Shown piece after piece: positions 9,563 to 25,482 of a stretch of 64,000 nt of DNA. This DNA comes from Blastocatellia bacterium (lineage in GTDB: Bacteria > Acidobacteriota > Blastocatellia > UBA7656). The notes beneath the pieces were generated by a model. The model was not told the DNA's origin, made no database searches, and saw only the letters and a program-made list of their open reading frames with translations. The DNA is taken from NCBI GenBank assembly GCA_963765495.1, contig CAVXWP010000001.1:1088001-1152000 (forward strand), in the 5' to 3' direction. Within the stretch, counting starts at the first letter, position 1. Every line of letters begins with the position of its first letter. Made by a program: the position numbers and the translations under genes.

Positions 9563-9658
9563 GTGATTCGTGATCTGGCAGACTTGCAAATAGTCTTGGA
9601 CAGGTGGCCTATCTGAAAATCACGGATCACGGATCACGTGGGCGCATCACGAATCACG
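9563..9658 (-). repeat. GTGA/TCAC heptamer-armed element with conserved 44-bp core (copy 1)
   Basis: Arms gtgattcgtgat / atcacggatcacggatcacg; core 9575-9618. Confidence 0.85.
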
Positions 9659-9670
9659 TAAAGGAGAGCT

Positions 9671-11257
9671 ATGGACCTGACCCTTACCCCGCTCAGATTC
9701 AAAGAGCGCGCCGTCACTCATTACGGCAATAAAGTAGGAATAATAGATGGCGATGTGCGGCTGACCTACCGCGAATTTGGCGAGCGCGCCGACCGTCTGT
9801 CGAACGCGCTTGCGGAGCTTGGCACCAATCGAAGGGACCGTGTCGCGTGGCTCGGTTATAACAGCCACGCGCTGCTCGAAGCCTACTACGGCGTAGTGCA
9901 GATGGGTGCGGTCCTGTTACCGCTAAACATCAGGCTTACGCCGCAAGAGATTGAATTCATACTCAATGATTCGGAAGCTACGACCCTCGTCTATAACAGA
10001 GATTTTTTGCCAATCGTCGAAGCGGTGCGCGCCGGGGCTAAAACTATAAGGCATTATATCCCGATTGAATCCGGCTCAGTGGCGGGCGACGAGATGGATT
10101 ATGAGACCCTGCTTTCAGCCGCAGGAGCCGATTTCACGCCTCCCTCAGACATCAAAGACGATGACCTGGCGGAACTCTTCTACACATCGGGCACGACGGC
10201 AAATCCCAAGGGCGTGATGATGACGCATCGCAATCTCTATCTCCACGCCTTGCAGGTGCTGGCGGGGATGGGCGTAAAAGACTCGAACGTACAGCTTCAC
10301 ACCATACCGCTTTTTCACGTCAACGGCTGGGGCACTCCGCACACCATCACGGGCGCGGGCGCTCGCCACGTAGTCGTAAAAAAATTCGACCCCGCGGAGG
10401 TTTTACAACTCGTCGAGCGAGAGCGGGTCACTCATTTTTCGATGGTCCCGACGATGGCCACGGCGCTCGTCAACTGCCCCTTGCTTGGCCAGTATGATCT
10501 GTCGAGCCTGGAATATGTAGGCATAGGAGGGGCGGCTGCGCCCACGGACCTGATCCGCGAGATAGAAGAAAAGCTTGGGTGTCGCGCCTACGGCGGTTAT
10601 GGCCTTACCGAAACCACCCCGGTGCTGACGTTCTCTTTTATAAAGGATCATTTGAAGGACTTGCCCGATGAAGAGCGATGGAGACGACAGGCGATGACCG
10701 GCTACCCCATGCCGGGCGTCGAGATGAGCATAGTCGATGCGGATGACAACCACCTGCCGCGAGACGGCGCAAGCGCAGGCGAGATAGTCGTCCGCGCAGA
10801 CAACGTGATGGCCGGTTATTGGAAACAGCCCGAAGATACGGCGCATGTTATGCGCGGCGGCTGGTTCCACACGGGCGATATGGCCACGATTGATGAGGAA
10901 GGCTACTTTCTGATAGTAGACCGCAAGAAAGACATAATCATATCGGGAGGCGAAAACATCTCTTCCATAGAAGTGGAAAAAGCGATCTTCTCGCACCCTT
11001 CGGTCTTTGAATGCGCGGTCATTCCCGTACCCGATGAAAAATGGGGTGAGGTTCCGAAGGCGCTCGTTGTCGTAAAGCCGGGCGAAACGCTCGACGAGAA
11101 GGAACTTATTGATCACTGCCGGACGAGGCTGCCCGGTTTCAAGATTCCAAAGTCAGTGATCTTTATGGATTCACTTCCAAAGGGAGGGACCGGAAAGATA
11201 CTCAAGAAAGAACTGCGCGAGAAATACTGGGAAGGTTACGAAAAGCGCGTCCACTAG
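9671..11257 (+). CDS. Fatty acyl-CoA synthetase (AMP-binding family), tandem paralogue
   Basis: YTSGTTANPKG, PLFHVNGWG, GWFHTGD and ISGGENISS motifs. Confidence 0.92.
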   Translation: MDLTLTPLRFKERAVTHYGNKVGIIDGDVRLTYREFGERADRLSNALAELGTNRRDRVAWLGYNSHALLEAYYGVVQMGAVLLPLNIRLTPQEIEFILNDSEATTLVYNRDFLPIVEAVRAGAKTIRHYIPIESGSVAGDEMDYETLLSAAGADFTPPSDIKDDDLAELFYTSGTTANPKGVMMTHRNLYLHALQVLAGMGVKDSNVQLHTIPLFHVNGWGTPHTITGAGARHVVVKKFDPAEVLQLVERERVTHFSMVPTMATALVNCPLLGQYDLSSLEYVGIGGAAAPTDLIREIEEKLGCRAYGGYGLTETTPVLTFSFIKDHLKDLPDEERWRRQAMTGYPMPGVEMSIVDADDNHLPRDGASAGEIVVRADNVMAGYWKQPEDTAHVMRGGWFHTGDMATIDEEGYFLIVDRKKDIIISGGENISSIEVEKAIFSHPSVFECAVIPVPDEKWGEVPKALVVVKPGETLDEKELIDHCRTRLPGFKIPKSVIFMDSLPKGGTGKILKKELREKYWEGYEKRVH

Positions 11258-12635: not shown

Positions 12636-13577
12636 TTAAGAGCCAAAGCTGAATCCGCCGCCGCCGCCGCTCGATTGCGAAGGAAAGAACGGCTTGAGCA
12701 GCCCGGCGAGCGCCGCAAGGTTTCGGGTCTGGATCAAAAGCTCGCCCGGCCCCTGAAATTCTGCGACTATGCCTTCCCCGCTCACAAGGCTGCGGAAGAA
12801 CCCCGCTGCCGCTTTGCGTAGCTGGTACTGCGTAGAGCCTTCCCATGCCACGAGATGTCCCGTATCGACTACATATCGCTCGCCCGGTCCCAATCGCTTG
12901 CGATGAATCGCGCCGAATGATGAGAGCAACAACAGCCCTGTGCCGTAAACCTGCAATACGAAAAGCCCCTCGCCCCCGAAGAAAGATTTCGCGCCGCCCC
13001 ATTTCGTATCAACCGTGAGCCCCGCGTCTCCGGCGAGGTATGAACTTGATTGCACGAAAAACATCTGATTGTTCATCTCTATCGCGGCGATGTCGCCGGG
13101 CGCGCCGGGCGCGAGCGTCACTTCGCCGGGGCCGCCCCTCGCCGTAAACGTAGAGACGAAGGCCGATTCGCCTCCCACGGCCCGCTTTAACGCGCCCATC
13201 AACCCGCCTTTCATCTGCGATTGCAACTCTACGTTTGCCGACATAGAAACCATAGCGCCCGCTTCGGCAAGAATCGATTGCTCTGCCTGCAAGTGAACCA
13301 CCGCAAGCGAAAACGCCGGTTGATGAAGTATCTCGTAGCTGTACCCGCGTCCCGTCCCTTGCGCATCATCGTCAATATGTATGCCGTGCCCGCCCCCCGA
13401 AGGATTTGGCTGCGGAGCGTTTGAGCCGTAGCCGGGCGGTGGGTTTTCATAGCCGGGCGGCGGATTGTTAGCGCCGTAGCCGGGTTGCGGATTGCCTGCT
13501 GCTTCAACGCGATTGCCGCAGAGTGTGCAAAACTGCGCGCCCGGAGCCAGTGCTCCACCGCATCTGGAACAGTTCAT
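12636..13577 (-). CDS. TIGR00266/AIM24 family protein with N-terminal zinc ribbon and Pro-rich linker
   Basis: CSRC...FCTLCG, then AEAGAMV, GGES.F, FGGEGLF and VDTGHLVAW. Confidence 0.88.
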   Translation of the reverse strand: MNCSRCGGALAPGAQFCTLCGNRVEAAGNPQPGYGANNPPPGYENPPPGYGSNAPQPNPSGGGHGIHIDDDAQGTGRGYSYEILHQPAFSLAVVHLQAEQSILAEAGAMVSMSANVELQSQMKGGLMGALKRAVGGESAFVSTFTARGGPGEVTLAPGAPGDIAAIEMNNQMFFVQSSSYLAGDAGLTVDTKWGGAKSFFGGEGLFVLQVYGTGLLLLSSFGAIHRKRLGPGERYVVDTGHLVAWEGSTQYQLRKAAAGFFRSLVSGEGIVAEFQGPGELLIQTRNLAALAGLLKPFFPSQSSGGGGGFSFGS

Positions 13578-14327: not shown

Positions 14328-16790
14328 TCACATCAAGCTTACGGGATCGACTTCGATAGAGATTGATCGCGGATTGTGGCCGAGCGCCGTAGCTTTGTCC
14401 ATCGCTATATCGAGAATCTCGCGGGCGCGGCGGCGACTACGCGCCTTTATCAATATCTGAAATCGGTGCTCGCCTTTGAGCCGGGCAAGCGGAGCGGGCG
14501 CAGGCCCAAGCACTCGAAGAGAGGAGTCGCGGGCCGCCTCTCTGAGTTCGCGCGCCAGATCGGTGGCCGCAAGATTTGCGCGATCAAACTCCTTATCACG
14601 CACGCAAATGTTTATGAGCGCGCTAAAGGGCGGATAGTGCATCGCCCGGCGAAAGCTTATCTCTCGCTGATAAAACGCGTCGTAATCCTGCGCCCGGGCA
14701 CAGACCAGAGAGTAATGCTCCGGGTGATAGGTCTGAATTATCACGCGGCCCGGCAACTCGCCGCGACCGGCTCTTCCGGCCACCTGCGTGAGCAGTTGAA
14801 ACGTCCGCTCGGCGGCTCGAAAATCGGGCAGCGACAGCCCCACGTCAACCGAGATCACGCCTACGAGTGTGACGTTATGAAAATCGTGACCCTTCGCAAG
14901 CATCTGCGTGCCGACGAGCATATCAATGGTCCCGGCTGCAAACTCCATCAGGATATGTTCAAGGCTGCCGCGCCGCCTGGTGGTGTCGCGGTCTACGCGG
15001 GCGATGCTCAATTCGGGAAATAATTCCTGCAACTTCGATTCAAGTTGCTCGGTCCCTTCGCCTACATACTGGATGTAAGGCCCGTCACAGGCAGGACAGG
15101 CGCGCGGCACGGGGCGAATGTAGTTGCAGTAGTGGCAGAGCAGGCTCGAATTATAACGATGATAGGTGAGCGTCACATCGCAGTTCGGGCAGCGCATAGC
15201 CGTGCCGCACGACCGGCACAGCGCGAACGAAGAATAGCCGCGCCGGTTCAAGAGGATCATGCTCTGCTCGCCGCGCTCGTGCGTTTCGGTGATGGCTGTC
15301 TTTAGCTCGTCGGAAAAGGTCTGAGACTTGCCGTATTTCTTGAAGACCTCGCGCATATCGACCGTCTGCACTTCGGCCAGCGCCCGGTTGCCGTAGCGGG
15401 TATCGAGCCTTATATAAGTAGACTTGTTTGTGCGCGCGTTGTGAAAGGATTCGAGCGAGGGCGTGGCCGAACCTATGACAACGACCGCGTGGGCCTGAAC
15501 GGCGCGCACTATAGCGGTGTCGCGTCCGTGGTAGCGCGGCGTCTCGTCCTGTTTGTAAGAAGTCTCGTGTTCTTCGTCTACGATGATGATGCCGAGGTTT
15601 TCAAGCGGAGCAAACACAGCCGAGCGAGTCCCGATTACCACACGCGCATCGCCGTCCTTGATGCGCCGCCACTCGTCGGTGCGTTCGCCTTCCGACAGGC
15701 TCGAATGAAGTATGGCAACCGCTTCGCCGAAATGCGCTCGCAGCCTGCGCGAAAAGACCGGCGTAAGCGCAATCTCGGGCACAAGCATCAAGGCGCTCAA
15801 CCCGCGATTCGTGGCCTCACGCATTGCCCGAATGTAAATCTCCGTCTTGCCGCTTCCCGTGACTCCGTGGAGCAGAAACGTAGCGTACTGGTGCTCATTG
15901 AGTTTTGCGACTATCTGATCGAGCGCGTGTTGCTGGTCTTCGTTGAGCGAAACAAGGTCAAGCTGATCCTGCCGAATGTGAGCGAGCGGGTCGCGTCGAA
16001 CCTCGCGGGGAAAGACTTCGATCAGGCCGCGCTTTTCAAGCGTCCGAACGACCGAAGCCGATACGTCAGCCTCTTCGAGCAATTCGCTGAGCGAAACATC
16101 GGTCTCGGCCATTTCCAGAAAGTCGATCACGCGCTGTTGCTGCTCTGTGAGCGGGCGGGGGCTTTTCTGGGGGCCAGGGGCCGGGGGCCCCCCCCTGAGC
16201 CGGACAGCATTCTGGAGCTTTGGCTTGAGACCGCTTTCGCCTACGCGATGGGCTACGTGGACGAGGCCCGCGCGTTCGAGTTGCCGGATGAGCGCCGCGG
16301 CGTGAGATTTCGAGAGTTGTCGTTCAAGCTCGCGGGAACTGATCGAGCCGGTATCGGCGAGCAGTTCGAGCGCCTGATGTTTTGAAGAGGACCACGCAAA
16401 CCCGGCCTGCGATTGAGCAACCATCGAGCGCCCCGCTTCCGTGATCGTCAGCACCTGTTCGGTGGCTACGGTAGCGCCAGCGGGCAGAGCCGTCCTCAGA
16501 CATTCGCCCCAGGGCGCGTGGTAATAATCGGCCATCCATTTTGTCAGTTCCAGAATATCGGGCGTGATGATGGGAGATTCGTCTACGAGTTCTTCGACAT
16601 CTTTTATATCGGAAGAAGCGATTTCTCCATCGAGTTGTTTATGCAGAGAGACGATAAAACCGGTCAGGAGCTTTTTGCCGAAGGGAACGATTACGCGGCA
16701 GCCGGGGAGGGCACGAAGCGCCATATCGCCCGGCAGGTGATAAGTAAACGTCTGTCTGACATGGACGGGAACCGCAACCTCCGCAAACAT
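14328..16790 (-). CDS. priA: Primosomal protein N' (replication restart helicase); start corrected to ATG at 16790
   Basis: MFAEVAVP...FTY start, [13 protein letters not shown], two CxxC pairs, GTQMLAKG. Confidence 0.95.
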
Positions 16791-16816
16791 CAGCCGTATT
16801 GTACACGATGCGGGCG
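16755..16816. repeat. Direct repeat copy A: priA -10 box plus first ~12 codons
   Basis: 57/62 identical to 20540-20601. Confidence 0.92.
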
Positions 16817-16848
16817 ACAGCCGAAAACCTGAACGGCGAACAAGGAAA

Positions 16849-19651
16849 TTACATGTATAGAGACTGTTGATTTGATGTGAGAAGGAACAGATCAACTTCC
16901 TGACGGTAAACCCATTCGTCGTCGTGTTGTGGACCCTCTCTGGAAATATACCGATGATTGAACTCGCCCATAATCTCTTCTGAAGAAGGCGGAGGATTTG
17001 TTGTCAGGTCATTATAAACCGCGATAGCGCGATCACGTTCCCCTAGTTCACCAAAAGAATGGAGGCGCAAGATATTAGCCTGCGGTTGAAGCATCGGAAA
17101 TGTGATTTGCTCAAGTACTTCACTGGCTTTCCTGAATTCATTCTGTCGAAGCCATGCAGCGCCCAAAGCTGTAAGAAAGTATTGCCTGCTGGAGGGCCAA
17201 GGACAACCTATCGCGCCATGCTCAAACACTTGTAATGCCTCATCTGTTTGGCCCATTCGTAACAGAATCATCCCGCGTATGTGGTAGCCAATCCAGTCTT
17301 CGTGGCTAGTTGGAACTTTATCCGGCAGATATGAAATAGCCTCCTCGTAACGTCGCAAAGCGGCAAGAACGCAACTCCGTCCATTTCTAGCTATAGAATC
17401 TTGCGGATGCGCAGTAACAATGTCGTTGTAAGCGGCAAGAGCATTTTCAAAACGGCCAAGTGCCTTCAATACCTCTGCTCTTCCAGTCTTGGCGATGACA
17501 TCCTCAGGATGCTCGACAATGACCTCATCATAGGCAGCAAGAGCATTTTCAAAACGGCCAAGTGCCTTCAATACCTCCGCTCTTCCAGATCTTGGCGATG
17601 ACATCCCCAGGATGCTCGACAATGACCTCATCATAAGCGGCAAGAGCATTTTCAAAACGGCCAAGTGCCTTCAATACCTCTGCTCTTCCGTCTTTGGCGA
17701 TGACATTTTCAGGATGCTCGACAATGACCTCATCATAGGCAGCAAGAGCATTTTCAAAACGGCCAAGTGCCTTCAATACCTCCGCTCTTCCAGTCTTGGC
17801 GATGACATCCTCAGGATGCTCGACAATGACCTCATCATAGGCAGCAAGAGCATTTTCAAAACGGCCAAGTGCCTTCAATACCTCTGCTCTTCCGTTTTTG
17901 GCGATGACATCCTCAGGATGCTCGACAATGACCTCATCATAGGCAGCAAGAGCATTTTCAAAACGGCCAAGTGCCTTCAATACCTCTGCTCTTCCGTTTT
18001 GGCGATGACATCCTCAGGATGCTCGACAATGACCTCATCATAGGCAGCAAGAGCATTTTCAAAACGGCCAAGTGCCTTCAATACCTCTGCTCTTCCGTTT
18101 TTGGCGATGACATCCTCAGGATGCTCGACAATGACCTCATCATAGGCAGCAAGAGCATTTTCAAAACGGCCAAGTGCCTTCAATACCTCTGCTCTTCCGT
18201 TTTTGGCGATGACATTTTCAGGATGCTCGACAATGACCTCATCATAGGCAGCAAGAGCATTTTCAAAACGGCCAAGTGCCTTCAATACCTCTGCTCTTCC
18301 GCTTGGCGATGACATTTTCAGGATGCTCGACAATGACCTCATCATAGGCAGCAAGAGCATTTTCAAAACGGCCAAGTGCCTTCAATACCTCCGCTCTTCC
18401 AGACTTGGCGATGACATCCCCAGGATGCTCAGCGATGACCTCATCATAAGCAGCAAGCGCCTTATCAAGGTGACCGAGTGCTTTCAGTACCTCTGCTCTT
18501 CCCCTCTTAGCTACGGCCCCAGCCCCAAATGAATATGCTTGTTCATATGCCCTTAATGCTTCATTTGGTTCTTGCATGTTTAAAAGCGCATCTCCGTATT
18601 GCGTCCAGGACCAGGCATCGTCAGGCTCCAGATTGATACTTCGCTCTGTCAGTTCTAGCTGCAAAGAGTACATGCCTAGAGCTTTTGCTTCGACTGCCAG
18701 ATCACATAATGACTTAACCAAAAACTTAGAACCGCCGTACCGTAGCTGATACTCAATGAGTTGATCTATAATTTCGCGAGCGCGTCCAATTTCTCGCCGT
18801 TGCATGGAATCAATTATTAATCTCTTCTGGCTTTCGACGTTTGCGAGTACAACTTCACGATTGATACCTGCTCGACGCCCTTTGCTTTTCCTTGATGAAC
18901 GGTTGCTTTCGGTTTCTTCTTCTATTTCGGGCCTTATGACTTGCGGCTCTTCTGTGATGCGAAAGGGTTTTACCCATTGCTGCAATATCGTTCGATGGTT
19001 TTTCAGCGCCTTTATTGAAGGTTTCCACAAAGAGTTAATGAGAAATTGGTTTACCTCTTCATTGCCGCGCCTGATGGCGAGGTCGCGGAAAAGCCCTTCC
19101 TGAATTGCAGTGTGGTGGAATTTTGTCTGTTCCTCAACTCCTCCGAACATCGTCACGGGGATACCGTCCCAGGATGAGCAGGCGAGACGTATAGACGGCT
19201 GATTCTCTCTGAGTCGTTCCAGCAGAGTGTATGCTCTGTTTGCCTGACTCTTATCGCGTAAACTCAAAGCTCCGTCAATATCGGCTGCATCGGGCAGGGG
19301 CCGCCCATAAAGTACGCTTTCCAGTTTCAACTCAATATCCGCGTCAATAAGCAATTCTTCGAGCGCATCTATGGCTTCGGCTCTGGTTTCATCCGAAAGC
19401 TCGGAGTCAAGCGCGATCAACGTCAGGTCAAGCGCAGCAGATGAGTTATAAGCTCGTTCCAATTCCTGCGCGACCTGAGCGCGGTCTACGTCTTCGAGAA
19501 ATTGAAGGTCGCTCGCATCGCCGAAGAGGAAGGGAAGGTCCGCCTGACGTCTGGGCACACAGGTATTCGGGTCGTCCACGTCGAACGACATCAGTGTGTT
19601 GCCTTCTATCAGTAGCGCCATTCCTGCGCGCCCGGAAATCGCTGCGTTCAT
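16849..19651 (-). CDS. Large TPR-repeat protein (~930 aa if continuous), broken by three frameshifts within the repeat array
   Basis: ORFs 18263-19651, 17977-18375, 17549-17980 and 16849-17664 join into one protein with the 34-aa unit [34 protein letters not shown]. Indels near 18300 (-2), 17998 (-1) and 17589 (+1). Confidence 0.8.
17425..18505. repeat. 102-bp tandem repeat array (10 near-identical copies plus 1 degenerate)
   Basis: aaaacggccaagtgccttcaatacc recurs about every 102 bp from ~17450 to ~18365. Confidence 0.95.
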
Positions 19652-20511
19652 CGCTTTACCTTCAGTGTGGCTCCCGTCTTTTCGAGCCTCTGCCTCAGAG
19701 CTTTAATTCTAACATTTTGGATTGTATTCTTGCGCGGGGTAAAGGTGACTCGCTCTATAGTCCGAGCGGTCATTGGCCCCCAAATATGTACCTCTACAAA
19801 TTCATCTTCTTCGGAGGTCGCGCCCTGGCGCAACAGCAGTCCAGAGTATTCATCTGCTCGTGTCGTGCTGTCAATACTCCCGGCGAGCTTGGCGACGCAG
19901 AGTTTATGCCGATTTTCCCACGTCGCACGGTAGCCTTTAGGAAGGGTTGGTGTATCGTACACCTCGACATTCCGGTGTTTCATGAACATCACCGAGTTCT
20001 CTTCAAATACAGAGGCGCGATGCGCGATCATATCGGTGCGAAAGACTAGCCAGCACTCGCCGTAGTTAGACAAACCAACCCCATCGAGTGAAAGCGCGGC
20101 GAACCGGATATGCTTTTTATAGCCGGGAAAAAGCGCGCTATCAGTTACGGCGCGCAAGATGTCCCATTTGTTGCCTTCGGGCAATCTGATTTCTGCTTCT
20201 GTTAGCTGGTAGTATGTTGCGTAAAGCTCGTTATCGCTTGTAGCGAGCCTCTCGACTTCGGCTAAGGAGCGCGAGATGACAACCACTGTGTTTGCCAAAG
20301 CAGCCTCAAAGTTATTAACGGCTTCATCTGCTCCGCGAGTTGCGGCCTCTGTTCTGGCTGTCTGGTAGCGATCTTCTAATGCTGAGTACTCGTCCGGGTC
20401 TTCGGCGGCGCGAACATTCGGAGGAGGACACCATCTTCCGCAATGCGGGCATCGATCAACCGAGGATGGGATATGATTATTACAATTAAGGCATAAATAC
20501 AATCTGCTCAT
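19648..20511 (-). CDS. Zn-ribbon plus DUF3626-like (putative ADP-ribosyltransferase-fold) protein
   Basis: CLNC..CPHC N-terminus. R..TDSALFPGY, IRFAALS..G...YGECWLVF, HRASVFEENS and DEFVEVHIWGP parallel DUF3626 motifs as recalled. ATGA overlap with the TPR gene. Confidence 0.55.
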   Translation of the reverse strand: MSRLYLCLNCNNHIPSSVDRCPHCGRWCPPPNVRAAEDPDEYSALEDRYQTARTEAATRGADEAVNNFEAALANTVVVISRSLAEVERLATSDNELYATYYQLTEAEIRLPEGNKWDILRAVTDSALFPGYKKHIRFAALSLDGVGLSNYGECWLVFRTDMIAHRASVFEENSVMFMKHRNVEVYDTPTLPKGYRATWENRHKLCVAKLAGSIDSTTRADEYSGLLLRQGATSEEDEFVEVHIWGPMTARTIERVTFTPRKNTIQNVRIKALRQRLEKTGATLKVKR

Positions 20512-20539
20512 GAGCGTTTACACCACGTTTTGCTGTCGT

Positions 20540-20601
20540 TCTGTCATGGACGGGAACCGCAATCTCCGCAAACATCAGCCGTATTGTACACAATGTAGGC
20601 G
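20540..20601. repeat. Direct repeat copy B: displaced priA promoter and 5' fragment (MFAEIAVPVH)
   Basis: tctgtcatggacgggaaccgcaatctccgcaaacatcagccgtattgtacacaatgtaggcg. Confidence 0.92.
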
Positions 20602-20641
20602 GGTGGCGAAAGATATTGAAACGATGACTCAAGCCCTGTGA

Positions 20642-20735: not shown

Positions 20736-21731
20736 ATGGCAACTGTCGCGCTCTTAAATCCTGATACTCGCATATTGCCGCTCGCACAGGCGGACCTCAC
20801 GGGTCTTGAAGCTCTCTTCGATCAACAATGTGCTGAATGGCTCTCTCTGCTCAGATGGGATTACAGCGGGCCGAGCCGCTTGATACGCGAAGTGGCGCGT
20901 CAGCGCGATCTGTCCGGCTTTGTAGCGATGGCTGGAAACACAACTGTGGGCTTTGCCTTTTACGTGCTTGAGAGCAATCGCTGCTCGATAGGCGACGTGT
21001 ATGTTGCTAAATCGTGGCGCAACATGGGTGTGGACCGGCAGATGATCGAAGCCATTCTTGAAAAGCTCAATCACACCCCCCGACTCCGCCGCATCGAAAG
21101 CCAGTGCGTAAGCATAGACAACGATGAGGCGAATCGGCTGCTTGAATCCATAGGCTTTGAGCGCTTTGAACGTCTTTACATGCTGGCTGACCTTGCGCCG
21201 CTCGACAAATTCAAGCCTCGGCCCGAAGTCTCGGAGTATAAAGGCGCGAGCCAGATTGACATAAATATCAGAGGATGGAAAGAGGAAGATTTCGCGCAGG
21301 CGGCCCGGATCATACACGGTTCGTATCGTGGCAAACACGACAGCCGCATCAACAGCCAGTACCGCACGGAAGAAGGTTGCGCCGAACTTCTCTCAATACT
21401 GACCGATCATATCTGGTGCGGCGATTTTCTGCCCCAGGTAACGCGAGTGGCGGTCTCTCGCGCAAGCGGCAACAGGTTGGGCGTGTTGCTGGCCTCGCGC
21501 ATCGCATCGGGCATCGGGCATATCGGGCAGATTTCGATCCTGCCCGCTTATCAGGGGCTTGGCCTCGGATGCCGCCTCGTCACCGAAGCCCTGACAGAAT
21601 TCAAGCAACGCGGTTTCCGCTCTGTGACGCTTGCCGTCACTGCCGCAAACGAACGGGCGTTTCGCCTATATCAATCCACAGGCTTTCGCACGATCCATCA
21701 ATTCCCGGTCTTTTACCGCGAATTAAGATGA
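20736..21731 (+). CDS. Tandem GNAT N-acetyltransferase
   Basis: Two acetyl-CoA motifs (V..SWRNMGV and I.PAYQGLGLG) plus N.RA.RLY...GF. Confidence 0.88.
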   Translation: MATVALLNPDTRILPLAQADLTGLEALFDQQCAEWLSLLRWDYSGPSRLIREVARQRDLSGFVAMAGNTTVGFAFYVLESNRCSIGDVYVAKSWRNMGVDRQMIEAILEKLNHTPRLRRIESQCVSIDNDEANRLLESIGFERFERLYMLADLAPLDKFKPRPEVSEYKGASQIDINIRGWKEEDFAQAARIIHGSYRGKHDSRINSQYRTEEGCAELLSILTDHIWCGDFLPQVTRVAVSRASGNRLGVLLASRIASGIGHIGQISILPAYQGLGLGCRLVTEALTEFKQRGFRSVTLAVTAANERAFRLYQSTGFRTIHQFPVFYRELR

Positions 21732-21857: not shown

Positions 21858-23714
21858 TTACTGGCCCGCGATCACCATGAGCGTTACGGTATTCGATGAT
21901 TTCCCGTCCGCGTTGCGAACCTGAATTGTGTGGTCGCCCGCCTCCCTGAGCATCTTCTTTTCAAATTTGCCTATCAATTCCGTGGTCGTGGCGCTTTCGA
22001 TTTCGAGCGCCACGCCGTCGAAGAGCAACTGGGCGCCCGCGTCAAAATCTGTCCCTTCGACTACGAGCCGGAATTTGTGGGCCTTCTTCAGCGTAGTCAC
22101 AGGATTGAAGATGCGGTTTCTGGTCTTCTTGAAAACCTCGAACGACGAGATGTGCGGAAGGGAATCGCCCGGCGGATTGCCGGACTTCGTTACGGCGAGC
22201 GTCTGCTGATTTGAATGCGTGCCGTCGGGATTCTTTACCTCGATAGAGATTAACCGCTCCGTGGAAGTCGTTCCCGCAGGCAGTATGCCTGAAAGCTCAA
22301 AACGGTCAGCGCCCGGAGTCGTGGGTATCTGGACGCCGTCGGCGAGGATAACGGCTCCCGGTTTCAGGTGTCTCCCTATCAAATCGATGGCGACGGCCCC
22401 GGGTCCGCTCTTTACGCTTGCGGGATGCAGCGGGCCTATGAAAGGCATCGCGTCGCTTCCCGTGCGATGTATCCGATAGATGATGTGGTGATGCTCCGTA
22501 TCAATCCTGTGATGTACCGGATCGTAGCGGACTACGTAGATGTCGCCACTGATTGGATTAATAGCCGTCTCGACCGGGCCGTCGAACGGGTCTATCGGAT
22601 TGAGCCGCGCGATAAATTCATCCTCAATTACCTGGAATCCGTTTGCGGAATCGCCTTCCAGCTTGAGCCTGCGCAGGTCGCCGCCCAGATTTTGTGCGTT
22701 GGGCAGGTTTTTGTAGAGCGTGAGCAATAACTGATTTTCGAACTCGCCCGCCTGCGGCCCGGTGTAAAAGGCGAGCGATGTCGGCGTGAGGTGTCGCGGA
22801 AATTGAGTTATGGGAGCGGTGACCCCGGCGCAGTCGGCTCTTTCAGGCGAAGGCGTTCCTTCGCAAAGCGGGAAACCGTAATTGCCGTTTTGGACTACGT
22901 GATTGACCTCTTCGGGCGGGGCGTTATCGGGCGGGCAGTTGTTGCCCTGGCATATCTCTCCCGATCCGCCGTCGGTAGAAAAGAGTTCTCCGTTAACTGG
23001 ATGAAAGGCCATGCCGAAAGGGTTTCGAAGCCCGGCGGCGAAGACCTCGGGCGCGGGGTTTTCCGCGTCAACATCAACGCGCAGCATCTTGGCGTTTAGC
23101 GGGCCTTCCTGCGGGCGTCCGGGCTTGGCCTCACCGGCGTCGGTGGCCGATCCCTGTCCGAAATAAAGCAGCCCCTCGGGACCGAACTTCAGCCGGTCGG
23201 TCTGATGATCGCCGCCGCTCGGCAGCCCGTCTAGGATTACCTTTATGTCATCGGCAACATCATCCCCGTCAGTGTCTCGCAGGCGGATTATGCTCCCCCG
23301 CCCGTCGTAGGAATTGCTTGTGATAAACAGATCACCGTTGTCTCTGAATTCGAGGCCCAGAAATGCGGAGGGCAGAGGATTTCCCGGATGAATCTCCTTA
23401 TCGGTGATAAATGTCTTTACCTCATCAACGACCCCGTTGTCGTCATTGTCGAGGAGTATGAGAATCTTTCCCGCCGTGGTCCCGACAAACATCCTTCCTC
23501 GCGCATCGAATGCCATGCCGACCGCCCCTGTTACCAGCCCTCTTCCAAACTCTTCTACGTTATGCTGGTCGGCGAATACATTGAACTCAAAACCCTCGGC
23601 TATATTTACCGGGTTTAATTGCGCGTTTGTATGAGCGGGAAAAATTATTGGTGCGAGCGCAAGCGCCAGTATCAAAAACGCGCTCGCCGTCTGTGCAGTT
23701 CTTATCTTGAGCAA
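21858..23714 (-). CDS. Secreted PQQ-dependent sugar/sorbosone dehydrogenase-like beta-propeller with two C-terminal IPT/TIG-like domains
   Basis: Signal peptide, FGPEGLLY, GLRNPFGMAF, NYGFP; C-terminal V.NPDG..SN motifs. Confidence 0.75.
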   Translation of the reverse strand: MLKIRTAQTASAFLILALALAPIIFPAHTNAQLNPVNIAEGFEFNVFADQHNVEEFGRGLVTGAVGMAFDARGRMFVGTTAGKILILLDNDDNGVVDEVKTFITDKEIHPGNPLPSAFLGLEFRDNGDLFITSNSYDGRGSIIRLRDTDGDDVADDIKVILDGLPSGGDHQTDRLKFGPEGLLYFGQGSATDAGEAKPGRPQEGPLNAKMLRVDVDAENPAPEVFAAGLRNPFGMAFHPVNGELFSTDGGSGEICQGNNCPPDNAPPEEVNHVVQNGNYGFPLCEGTPSPERADCAGVTAPITQFPRHLTPTSLAFYTGPQAGEFENQLLLTLYKNLPNAQNLGGDLRRLKLEGDSANGFQVIEDEFIARLNPIDPFDGPVETAINPISGDIYVVRYDPVHHRIDTEHHHIIYRIHRTGSDAMPFIGPLHPASVKSGPGAVAIDLIGRHLKPGAVILADGVQIPTTPGADRFELSGILPAGTTSTERLISIEVKNPDGTHSNQQTLAVTKSGNPPGDSLPHISSFEVFKKTRNRIFNPVTTLKKAHKFRLVVEGTDFDAGAQLLFDGVALEIESATTTELIGKFEKKMLREAGDHTIQVRNADGKSSNTVTLMVIAGQ

Positions 23715-23808: not shown

Positions 23809-25281
23809 TCAATCCGGCGCTATTTCGATGGAGAGTTGATTCGAACGCACGCCGTTGGGATTGACTACCTCGACTATGAGCAGCCCCGGCGCGGAGAGAG
23901 TGTCGCCGCGCAGCCGGGCTACGAGTATCGAATCTCCGTTGTCGGATGTCTTGAGCTTGGTCTTCACCTCCCGGTCGTTTATCACCACAACCGATGCGTC
24001 AACAAACCCCTCGCCGGAAACCACCAGTTGATACTTCTTTCCCTTCTTTTTGACCGTCACCGGCTGTAGCAATGCGTGATCGGATTTCTTGCGAACGAGG
24101 GCCGAGGTGATCTCTATCGAAGAGGGCAGCGGGCCGTTCGGATTGGCTATGCGAGCTACGCTTCCTCCAAGCCCGACGACATAAATCTCTCCGTCCCGAT
24201 CCTCGCCGAATGAAGAGATGTTGAGATCGGTATCCAGAAGCACGCTCTCGACGCCGCCGTCGAGCAGGAATATCTCGCCCGTGCAATAATCACCGAAAAC
24301 ATATGACCCGACCGGCAAAGCCCCTTTTGTGCCGCGATAGACATATCCTCCCGTAAGCGAGCATCTCCCTTGCGTGTGCCCGTATTCGGCTATGGGGGTG
24401 GTGAACCCGGCCGTAGAGCACTGGCCGTTATTAAAGCTCGGGTTGCAATGATTTCCTTCCATCACGCGCCAGCCGTAATTTCCGCCGCGCGTGACCTTGT
24501 CAATCTCTTCAAAACTGCCCTGCCCAACGTCGCCCACGTAAAGCTCGCCGGTTGCGCGGTCGAAAGAGAAACGAAACGGATTGCGCAAACCGACTGCGAA
24601 AATCTCATCGCGCCCCGCCGTTCCGTTAAACGGATTATCGGGCGGCGAAGAGTATGCTTGAGCGCCGTTTGGATGATCTACATCAATTCGCAGCATCTTT
24701 CCTAAAAGCTCCTTTATGTTCTGCGCGCGATTGCCGGGATCGTTGGCCGAACCGCCGTCTCCCATGCCGATGTAGAGATAGCCTTCGGGGCCGAAGGCTA
24801 TCATTCCGCCGTTGTGATTGGCAAAGGGCTGCGGAATCGTGAGCAGCACGGTTTCGGCGGGTTCGGCTACATTTGGGTCTTGCGCCGAAACGTGATATTC
24901 GGCGATCACGGTTGCTCCGTCAGGTTCGCGAGTATAGTTGACAAAGAAGCGGCGGTTCTGTTGAAACTGGGGATGAAAGGCGAGCCCGAGCAATCCGCGC
25001 TCTCCGCCGAAATTCACCTTCGAGGTTATATTGAGAAATACGGTCGGGACGGTTGCATCCGCTTGAAGCACTTTTATGCGTCCGGGCTGTTCGACTACGA
25101 ACAGGCGGTTGCTTGCATCGGTCGCGTGCGTAACAAATACGGGATTGTCCAGCCCGCCAAGCACGGGCACGAGCGTTATATCTACGGCAGCGGCAACCGA
25201 GGCTTTTCCATCACGGAAGAGTGTGGAGCCATAAGCGGCGACAATCGCCATAGAGATCAGAATCATTCTCGCCCTTTTCAT
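23809..25281 (-). CDS. Secreted PQQ-dependent sugar dehydrogenase (GSDH family) with C-terminal IPT-like domain
   Basis: [34 protein letters not shown] and ISSFGED motifs. Start taken at MKRAR. Confidence 0.88.
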
Positions 25282-25482
25282 AAGGCACCTCTTTTTACTG
25301 CACTCAGCGTCCGGCACAGGACCATGTTTTTTGGGGAGAGATAGAGCGCAACAGCCGATGATTATTTCTCGATTTACAGCCTTTGCGATTCGCCCGGGAC
25401 AGTCGAAAGGCTTGAGTAATACTAGCCGCCGTCTTTGGAATTGTCCACTGAATGAATTGGAGAACGGGGCTTTTTGACAGGA

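Follow-up and report, generated by a model that had tools for sequence, protein, structure and literature searches.

A two-gene islet at the start of priA in a Blastocatellia bacterium pairs a predicted SopF-like ADP-ribosyltransferase with a modular partner protein

ADP-ribosyltransferase (ART) toxins with dedicated partners, such as DarTG, CmdTAC and ParST, are important both in phage defence and in growth control, and all SopF and OspC-type enzymes described so far are, to our knowledge, effectors dependent on a cofactor from the eukaryotic host. This work concerns a locus of a Blastocatellia bacterium that, in its predicted structure, lies close to the second of these groups: a two-gene islet at the start of priA, located in a 64,000-nt stretch of contig CAVXWP010000001.1 (assembly GCA_963765495.1, positions 1,088,001 to 1,152,000 of the forward strand), which is called the window below and to which all coordinates refer. 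A preliminary description of the window, made from its letters, had seen in the islet an NAD+-using enzyme resembling DUF3626 together with a sensor made of tetratricopeptide repeats (TPR), and had placed the pair among the typical anti-phage or toxin-antitoxin architectures. Based on structure prediction, family searches and the comparison with related genomes, the first gene encodes a conserved, probably active ART close to SopF, and the second a dedicated partner, modular at its C-terminus, to which the enzyme is probably bound. As for its role, we tentatively favour, at just short of an even chance, a conflict module (toxin or defence) in the form of a mobile and accessory ART with two subunits.

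For SopF, the Salmonella effector (PDB entries 7dn8 and 7dn9), a DUF3626 is noted at residues 178-338 in the portion of PMC6682159 available to us, and the accessible portion of PMC10333799 presents the protein as an ARF-activated ART with an 'I-Y-E' triad. For OspC3 and CopC, which are ADP-riboxanases, activation by calmodulin is suggested by the titles of their PDB entries, our single source on this point. The part of the islet that compares with these enzymes is gene 1, with the following features:

19648..20511, minus strand: gene 1, an intact open reading frame (ORF) of 287 aa, with an N-terminal zinc ribbon and a SopF/DUF3626-like ADP-ribosyltransferase domain
20440..20493, minus strand: zinc ribbon, residues 7-24 (C7, C10, C21 and C24), with weak matches to Pfam Zn_Ribbon_1/DZR
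19651..20316, minus strand: ART-fold domain, residues ~66-287 (the VIA rows span model residues 66-287), with E240 in FVEVHIWGP

The AlphaFold2 model of gene 1, obtained with a 66-row alignment, has a predicted local distance difference test score (pLDDT) of 96.2 and a predicted template modelling score (pTM) of 0.93. It contains the split β-sheet of the ART fold with an NAD+ cleft, and shares the SopF fold across the whole domain. When compared with the PDB by Foldseek, SopF (7dn8_A) came first (E 5.6e-7, TM 0.57), followed by DarT, CopC/OspC3, CteC and Tpt1, and the search of BFVD gave 15 viral matches at E<=1e-3, one of which is a phage protein named DUF3626. The structure prediction proposed for this protein thus returned an ART fold, of the SopF type. 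At the sequence level much less is visible: the search of the PDB, both with the single sequence and with the 66-row profile, gave zinc-ribbon noise only, and nothing beyond weak zinc-ribbon matches was found in Pfam, NCBIfam or PADLOC. The hidden Markov model (HMM) of Pfam DUF3626 (PF12294; curated cut-off 27 bits) matched none of 66 sequences (gene 1 and 65 relatives) at E<=0.1 and none of 150 representative relatives at E<=1e-4; a wider scan with it (the genome of the window, 301 others from the phylum and two further records) was blank as well, but is uninformative, given that the control genomes were blank too. A score of 0.86 in the Atlas, to a cluster with PF12294 in 15% of its members, is a lead only. 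The parallel with DUF3626 drawn in the preliminary description therefore stands for the fold, with SopF as the top structural match, but the family lies outside Pfam DUF3626 as judged by the HMM.

The CxxC..CxxC ribbon and the motif series on which that description had been built are indeed present, and they are the most conserved columns of the 66-sequence alignment. Six residues (C21, C24, W198, K208, E240 and G245) are invariant, and R120, R165, N172, R195, R201 and H242 are found in at least 90% of the sequences (R120, R165 and N172 each in at least 64 of 66), while the cysteines of the ribbon are either invariant or conserved to at least 90%. The Glu of the 'EVH' motif, already pointed out as possibly catalytic, is E240. 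Y150 is Tyr or Phe in all 66 sequences and R136 is Arg or His in 49, and these two positions and E240 all lie on predicted strands; going by conservation, R/H136, Y150 and E240 are a candidate ART catalytic set. In both gene 1 and SopF a helical layer precedes the ART core, and the conserved Tyr and the invariant Glu of the family could match members of the SopF 'I-Y-E' triad, as this is given in the accessible text of PMC10333799. The differences are nevertheless considerable, since gene 1 is only 11-13% identical to SopF, its family has the N-terminal zinc ribbon, and it belongs to free-living soil bacteria where it is co-translated with a bacterial partner, whereas SopF is a secreted effector dependent on a host GTPase. 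The identity to OspC3 and CopC is lower still (4-7%); the targets and the cofactor of these enzymes are eukaryotic, and gene 1 has no ankyrin or other host-targeting region.

The family of gene 1 is large and of uniform length. A word-indexed search gave 1,134 proteins at E<=1e-3. With an exhaustive one, clustered at 50% identity, the number of clusters was at least 1,260, of which 512 reach E<=1e-30; the source databases label the members 'hypothetical protein'. At least four phyla are represented, with members in Acidobacteriota (Pyrinomonadaceae, Blastocatellia, Thermoanaerobaculia), in Verrucomicrobiota, in one metagenome-assembled genome (MAG) of Phycisphaerales and on a Rhizobium leguminosarum megaplasmid. 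Two of the 150 representatives have an N-terminal TIR domain fused to the gene 1 relative; fused long forms (>521 aa) were not found, which by the search tool's own grading is weak evidence. In one relative (P0135) a partial DUF2237 (profile positions 8-79 of 115) stands before the zinc-ribbon-ART, and this may be a gene-call fusion.

A different chemistry or a substrate other than protein seems to us rather improbable. Under this alternative the enzyme would perform DarT-like ADP-ribosylation of DNA or RNA bases (with the zinc ribbon aiding nucleic-acid binding), Tpt1-like RNA 2'-phosphotransfer, OspC-like ADP-riboxanation or plain NAD+ hydrolysis. The conservation of the ribbon would suit it, as would the name 'predicted nucleic acid-binding Zn-ribbon protein' that one source gives to a relative, and the wealth of conserved Arg and Lys in the family (R120, R165, R195, R201, K208), but fold similarity cannot assign a substrate, and the Pfam and NCBIfam scans showed nothing in the cassette like the reversal enzymes DarG or NADAR.

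The stop codon of gene 1 overlaps the ATG of the next ORF, at 19651 on the minus strand, in an ATGA at 19648-19651, which bears out the translational coupling that had been proposed. The part of this second gene that is of interest for the enzyme is its beginning:

18263..19651, minus strand: first piece of gene 2 (462 aa), with the N-terminal partner domain, a disordered linker, helical repeats and the first TPR units, ending at frameshift 1
18947..19651, minus strand: N-terminal partner domain, residues 1-~235 of gene 2 (N-domain HMM match in L013)

With an HMM built from the first 235 residues of gene 2, the partner N-domain was found immediately downstream of gene 1 in 18 of the 19 loci, all of which are matched by the gene 1 HMM; the exception, L017, is cut off by the edge of its contig, and the linkage is therefore 18 of 18 testable loci. 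That homologues of the two genes are linked in other genomes, as was to be expected of a true pair, is thus the case, and the pair is also found on the Rhizobium leguminosarum megaplasmid (NZ_CP050098.1), again with the N-domain directly after the gene 1 homologue. The model of the first piece of gene 2 (pLDDT 91.6) shows a five-stranded sheet (residues 1-52), a helical domain (57-230), a disordered linker and TPR-like helices. For residues 1-330 of this model a Foldseek search of the PDB gave nothing at E<=1e-3; in the VIA list the three helices of residues 265-330 took up the places, so that residues 1-235 were barely probed by it, and for the N-domain the Atlas had nothing above 0.83.

Gene 1 and its partner, cut to residues 1-240, were modelled as a complex with two alignments and three controls, as the preliminary description had proposed, and the model favours binding: the pair gave ipSAE values of 0.87, 0.87 and 0.86, and the best of the three controls 0.00. 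In the calibration 58 of 80 solved complexes attained the mark, as did 2 of 110 mismatched pairs, which is a rough guide only, as own alignments were used. The runs agree in at least 94% of the contacts, with a partner pLDDT of at least 89, and the predicted interface comprises 153-157 contacts. On gene 1 it is formed by residues 79-122 and 260-278, predicted to face residues 71-123 of the partner. Residues 135-137, 147, 149-150, 172-175, 232-234 and 246-247 of gene 1 also take part; they lie beside the candidate catalytic residues, so that the partner may cover or shape the active face. The prediction supports, within the limits of a model, the binding of gene 1 to the partner N-domain.

A tight protein partner would be a further likeness to SopF, for which, in the accessible part of PMC10333799, it is ARF1. 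With DarTG the locus has in common a two-gene operon in which the ART gene comes first and, here by prediction, a partner that binds the enzyme. In contrast to DarTG, gene 2 has no macrodomain or known hydrolase domain (its Pfam and NCBIfam matches are to TPR only), partners of the gene 2 type carry variable C-terminal modules, there is no DarTG match in PADLOC, and the fold of gene 1 is nearer to SopF than to DarT.

The variability of the partner is seen in the C-terminal modules of 54 N-domain matches, taken from a precomputed Pfam column or from source names, with ten of them rescanned:

TPR: 31 of 54
ECF/sigma-70 regions: 6 of 54
CHAT: 2 of 54
Peptidase_C25: 2 of 54
metallophosphoesterase: 1 of 54
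treble-clef zinc fingers: 1 of 54
complete MreB: 1 of 54 (E 1.5e-91)
REC + sigma54-AAA + HTH: 1 of 54
no recognised domain: 9 of 54

The 'TPR sensor' of the preliminary description is thus the commonest form of the partner, but TPR is one of many C-terminal modules. The ECF sigma module consists of regions r2 and r4. Directly adjacent to the ART we found the N-domain with sigma54-AAA in a genome of the same family as the host organism (L018), with a phasin in L008, and with a complete Ribosomal_S2 on the Rhizobium plasmid (E 1.4e-96, profile positions 1-216). The record of this plasmid annotates a 247-aa 'rpsB' (9622-10365), and the open frame from 8830 (L050:8830-10362 of NZ_CP050098.1) has 511 aa and matches the N-domain HMM with E 2.6e-15; it is probably a plasmid-borne S2 paralogue fused to the ART-partner domain, with a mis-started annotation.

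The modular conflict systems (eLife 2020, PMC7159879) also combine an unchanging core with exchangeable TPR, TIR, CHAT and peptidase modules and, according to the part of that paper available to us, likewise occur in Acidobacteriota, Verrucomicrobiota and Planctomycetota. They differ in being centred on an NTPase (none is encoded in the cassette described here), and in the same available part an ART is mentioned only for a three-gene SecB system, and the terms 'sigma factor' and 'MreB' do not occur. We found no paper describing this pair, in a literature search whose scope ended before the supplementary candidate lists of recent defence-discovery papers. ARTs and partner modules as such are already known; what is new is the unstudied enzyme family, a partner domain of unassigned fold and the unusual set of fusions.

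In the window itself gene 2 is not one open frame, since it falls into four ORFs of 462, 132, 143 and 271 aa. The pieces that follow the first one, the repeat array and the frame changes are:

17977..18375, minus strand: second ORF of gene 2, open frame
17549..17980, minus strand: third ORF of gene 2, open frame
16849..17664, minus strand: last piece of gene 2 (ORF of 271 aa), whose frame stays open, containing the final TPR units and the conserved tail at the C-terminus
17435..18502, minus strand: tandem array of 102-bp (34-aa TPR) units, 10.5 copies with 94% matches
18292..18302, minus strand: frameshift 1, a repeat junction of 11 nt instead of 13 (-2)
17987..17998, minus strand: frameshift 2, a repeat junction of 12 nt instead of 13 (-1, in an A run)
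17578..17591, minus strand: frameshift 3, a repeat junction of 14 nt instead of 13 (+1)

The earlier view of gene 2 as an N-terminal domain followed by a long TPR solenoid holds as far as the array is concerned, but the three indels that split it had been overlooked. Pfam TPR matches above the cut-off are TPR_1 (46 and 54.7 bits), TPR_2 and TPR_14, on pieces 1 and 4, those of the first piece lying at residues 336-447, and a C-terminal tail like that of gene 2 is present in the partners of L001, L002 and L003. The same type of 102-bp unit occurs in relatives, with 12.1 copies at 83% in Prosthecobacter (L012), where the ORF is a single intact one of 936 aa, and 3.7 copies at 87% in a Pyrinomonadaceae MAG (L002). 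From these 3.7, 10.5 and 12.1 units across lineages it follows that the TPR copy number varies and that the units are homogenised within lineages. In an Acidobacteriota MAG (L006:7531-8591) the partner N-domain is itself split, with HMM positions 1-150 and 152-234 on different ORFs, and is possibly frameshifted.

If the indels are real, the islet of this genome would be a decaying remnant, with a truncated partner (the N-domain and about three TPR units) and a module that no longer works, independently of the role that the family has elsewhere. This is possible, although we doubt it. Three frame changes within 730 bp are many, and nearby genes are intact (priA, a GNAT gene and two ORFs of about 500-600 aa), so that the assembly is not generally indel-ridden; on the other hand, every one of the changes lies inside the 13-nt junction between TPR units of a 94%-identical array, where errors of long-read consensus or polishing would concentrate, the downstream pieces are open in their own frames up to an intact conserved tail, and gene 1 and the N-domain are intact as well. 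Because all three changes fall at one variable repeat site, and one is the loss of a single A from an A run, we lean slightly towards consensus errors in a near-identical array. A single public run, the soil metagenome X1, contains the locus (58% of sampled words). Outside the array its contigs, which are of low depth, show no difference from the window; no contig covers 17638-18843, and the run neither confirms nor refutes the indels. Among the public runs listed for the locus there is none of RNA.

The cassette is an AT-richer insert of 3.7 kb, between duplicated copies of the promoter-like region and 5' end of priA:

16750..16826, minus strand: direct repeat copy A, which continues into the functional priA, with the promoter-like box and the ATG at 16788-16790
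20535..20611, minus strand: direct repeat copy B, with a relic GTGTACAAT box and ~12 priA codons, directly upstream of gene 1
14328..16790, minus strand: priA (primosomal helicase N'), intact, with the Pfam PriA domains from residue 39 of a longer ORF

Two further features of the preliminary description, its AT-richness and its 62-bp direct repeats, are confirmed here: the GC content is 0.46-0.54 over ~16.5-20.7 kb, versus 0.57-0.63 in priA and 0.55-0.62 further right, and the repeats are real, with 77 nt at 86% identity and, as read from the alignment printout, a core of ~55 nt with 3 mismatches, the latter being close to the 62 bp. Both copies were aligned with the priA 5' regions of 8 relatives, from which the repeat is the priA start, consisting of the GTGTACAAT box 8-9 nt before the ATG and the first ~12 codons (MFAEVAVPV..), conserved among the relatives. 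Beyond codon ~12, copy B no longer follows priA. A gap of 24 nt separates its end from the ATG of gene 1, and its 29-codon relic ORF, in the printed sequence, overlaps this ATG. priA is present in 26 of 26 relatives, with 84% identity to the closest. The longest ORF, 14328-16895 on the minus strand, would overlap the end of gene 2 with its TTG start at 16895, and the start conserved in the relatives is the ATG at 16790.

The box (window 16788-16826) is kept upstream of the priA ATG in the closest relatives (L035-L039), as GTGTAAAAT in L035 and GTGTACCAT in L039. Its position would fit an extended -10-like element and a priA transcript with almost no leader, and the cassette would now stand behind a duplicate of this putative promoter. 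A simple sigma-70 promoter and terminator scan found sites not above those of shuffled sequences, and did not call the GTGTACAAT box.

Between the repeats there are only the two genes, with no integrase or transposase. A target duplication of 55-77 nt fits single-crossover integration of circular DNA, and the arrangement is consistent with such a (Campbell-type) event, in which the circle would have carried a priA 5' fragment. A transposon or an integrase-borne island was considered and rejected, as only two genes lie inside and the duplication is too long for the target duplication of a transposase. The right-hand neighbour of the islet is a 331-aa protein with two GNAT acetyltransferase domains (20736-21731, plus strand), kept in 21 of 26 relatives. 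In none of the 13 relatives examined does the GNAT gene adjoin priA (a PP2C/SpoIIE-like gene usually precedes it there), which places the islet at a synteny break.

The distribution of the pair is patchy: of 41 related genomes 7 carry it and, counting the same family without the genome described here, 5 of 24. It is on this patchy and mobile distribution, on the TIR, CHAT and C25 variants and on the diversifying repeat array that we rate a conflict role the likeliest. Several observations weigh against it. PADLOC-DB v2.0.0 has no family matching either protein at E<=1, and a tblastn search of 50,697 phage records gave no homologue. Around the pair in 8 related loci, the 67 neighbouring ORFs (picked greedily by length, so that a few may be in wrong frames) are of housekeeping type, with carbamoyl-phosphate synthase, Nuo subunits, RF-1 and His phosphatase. 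These ORFs matched 43 PADLOC families, of which the best 25 each match only 2 ORFs and are mostly PD-T4-6 or kinase-labelled models, with one MkoA; since two of the neighbour ORFs carry Pfam Pkinase, we read them as generic kinase matches. Four loci of the Pyrinomonadaceae type share the order prfA, His phosphatase, pair, with nuoB next in the two that extend that far, a context that looks vertically inherited. Additionally, fusions of the partner to complete MreB and S2, to ECF sigma, sigma54 activators and phasin are not typical effectors, and a role in targeting or regulation would explain them no less well; by analogy with SopF and OspC3/CopC, the nearest structural relatives, which are activated and not inhibited by a bound protein (for OspC3/CopC as the PDB titles suggest), the partner could be an activator; and the local copy of gene 2 may be impaired by its three frameshifts. 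A location of the homologues in defence islands, which the preliminary description had proposed to check, and its placing of the pair among anti-phage or toxin-antitoxin architectures thus found no backing from PADLOC or from the eight neighbourhoods, and a defence or toxin role is accordingly a proposal.

Much of this evidence would also be expected of an endogenous, targeted regulatory ART, in which the N-domain activates the enzyme, as ARF does for SopF, and the C-terminal module delivers it to a cellular machine (ribosome, RNA polymerase, cytoskeleton or polyhydroxyalkanoate granule) that is tuned by ADP-ribosylation, the fused module or the N-domain being possibly the substrate. Complete housekeeping proteins at the partner C-termini (MreB, Ribosomal_S2, ECF sigma, REC-sigma54-AAA-HTH, phasin), housekeeping neighbours and the lack of a PADLOC match agree with it, as does an interface as large as that of an obligate heterodimer (153-157 contacts), and the closest solved relative, SopF, needs bound ARF1 as protein cofactor (PMC10333799, accessible part). 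For a core regulator, however, both the presence in 7 of 41 relatives and the acquisition by insertion would be unusual; the Pfam and NCBIfam scans of the cassette gave no ADP-ribosylhydrolase or macrodomain for reversal, TIR, CHAT and C25 variants are typical of conflict systems, and near-identical TPR units of varying copy number suggest a diversifying recognition. We consider the regulatory explanation, the main rival, unlikely, though one to be taken seriously.

A more speculative proposal, which we hold to be very improbable, uses the same fusions differently. The N-domain would be a universal docking clamp for the ART and the swapped C-terminal modules (TPR, S2, MreB, ECF sigma, sigma54 activators, phasin) would be baits, or integrated decoys, in part whole copies of essential host proteins. 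A phage or competitor factor directed at the genuine cellular protein, by attack or binding, would engage the decoy too and so release or activate the ART, which would shut down the cell or the invader. Plant NLR-ID immune receptors (nucleotide-binding leucine-rich-repeat receptors with integrated domains) carry integrated decoys, and are the model for this proposal.

Returning to the conflict module that we favour, what we infer on its activity, direction of control, target and biological role is as follows. Gene 1 would be an ART able to catalyse its reaction with NAD+, structurally close to SopF/DUF3626, OspC and DarT, with a zinc ribbon in front, and through the ATGA coupling gene 2 would be made in step with it. 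The ~235-aa N-domain of the partner would dock onto three parts of the ART, namely its helical layer, its C-terminal helix and the edge of its catalytic face, and this contact would control the enzyme, most likely keeping it inactive in the manner of an antitoxin. A trigger or target would be recognised by the variable module at the C-terminus (in this genome a TPR array that is expanding rapidly), after which the ART would modify a macromolecule of the cell or of an invader. The whole would be an accessory mobile cassette, whose insertion at the start of priA duplicated ~55-77 nt.

The flanks of the window are of housekeeping character, with purB, acyl-CoA ligases, TatD, priA, GNAT and sugar-dehydrogenase-like genes. 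Near the islet there is a second protein headed by a zinc ribbon, a 313-aa ORF (12636-13577, minus strand) with an N-terminal CxxC..CxxC, a Pro/Gly-rich linker and a C-terminal domain. On the other side, two adjacent paralogous ORFs on the minus strand, of 618 aa (21858-23714) and 502 aa (23809-25317), have similar β-rich C-terminal tails, and we take them to resemble β-propellers of the soluble glucose/sorbosone dehydrogenase type.

As a whole, the family, with its 1,260 clusters at 50% identity in at least four phyla, is a large one without a Pfam, NCBIfam or PADLOC model, and it would be a free-living bacterial counterpart of the SopF branch, with its own co-encoded bacterial partner. The fusions to full copies of S2, MreB, sigma factors and enhancer-binding proteins suggest either that a modifying enzyme is directed to cellular machines in a novel manner, or that sensing is decoy-based; if the bait proposal were true, this would be a bacterial guard/decoy immune architecture built on an ADP-ribosyltransferase.

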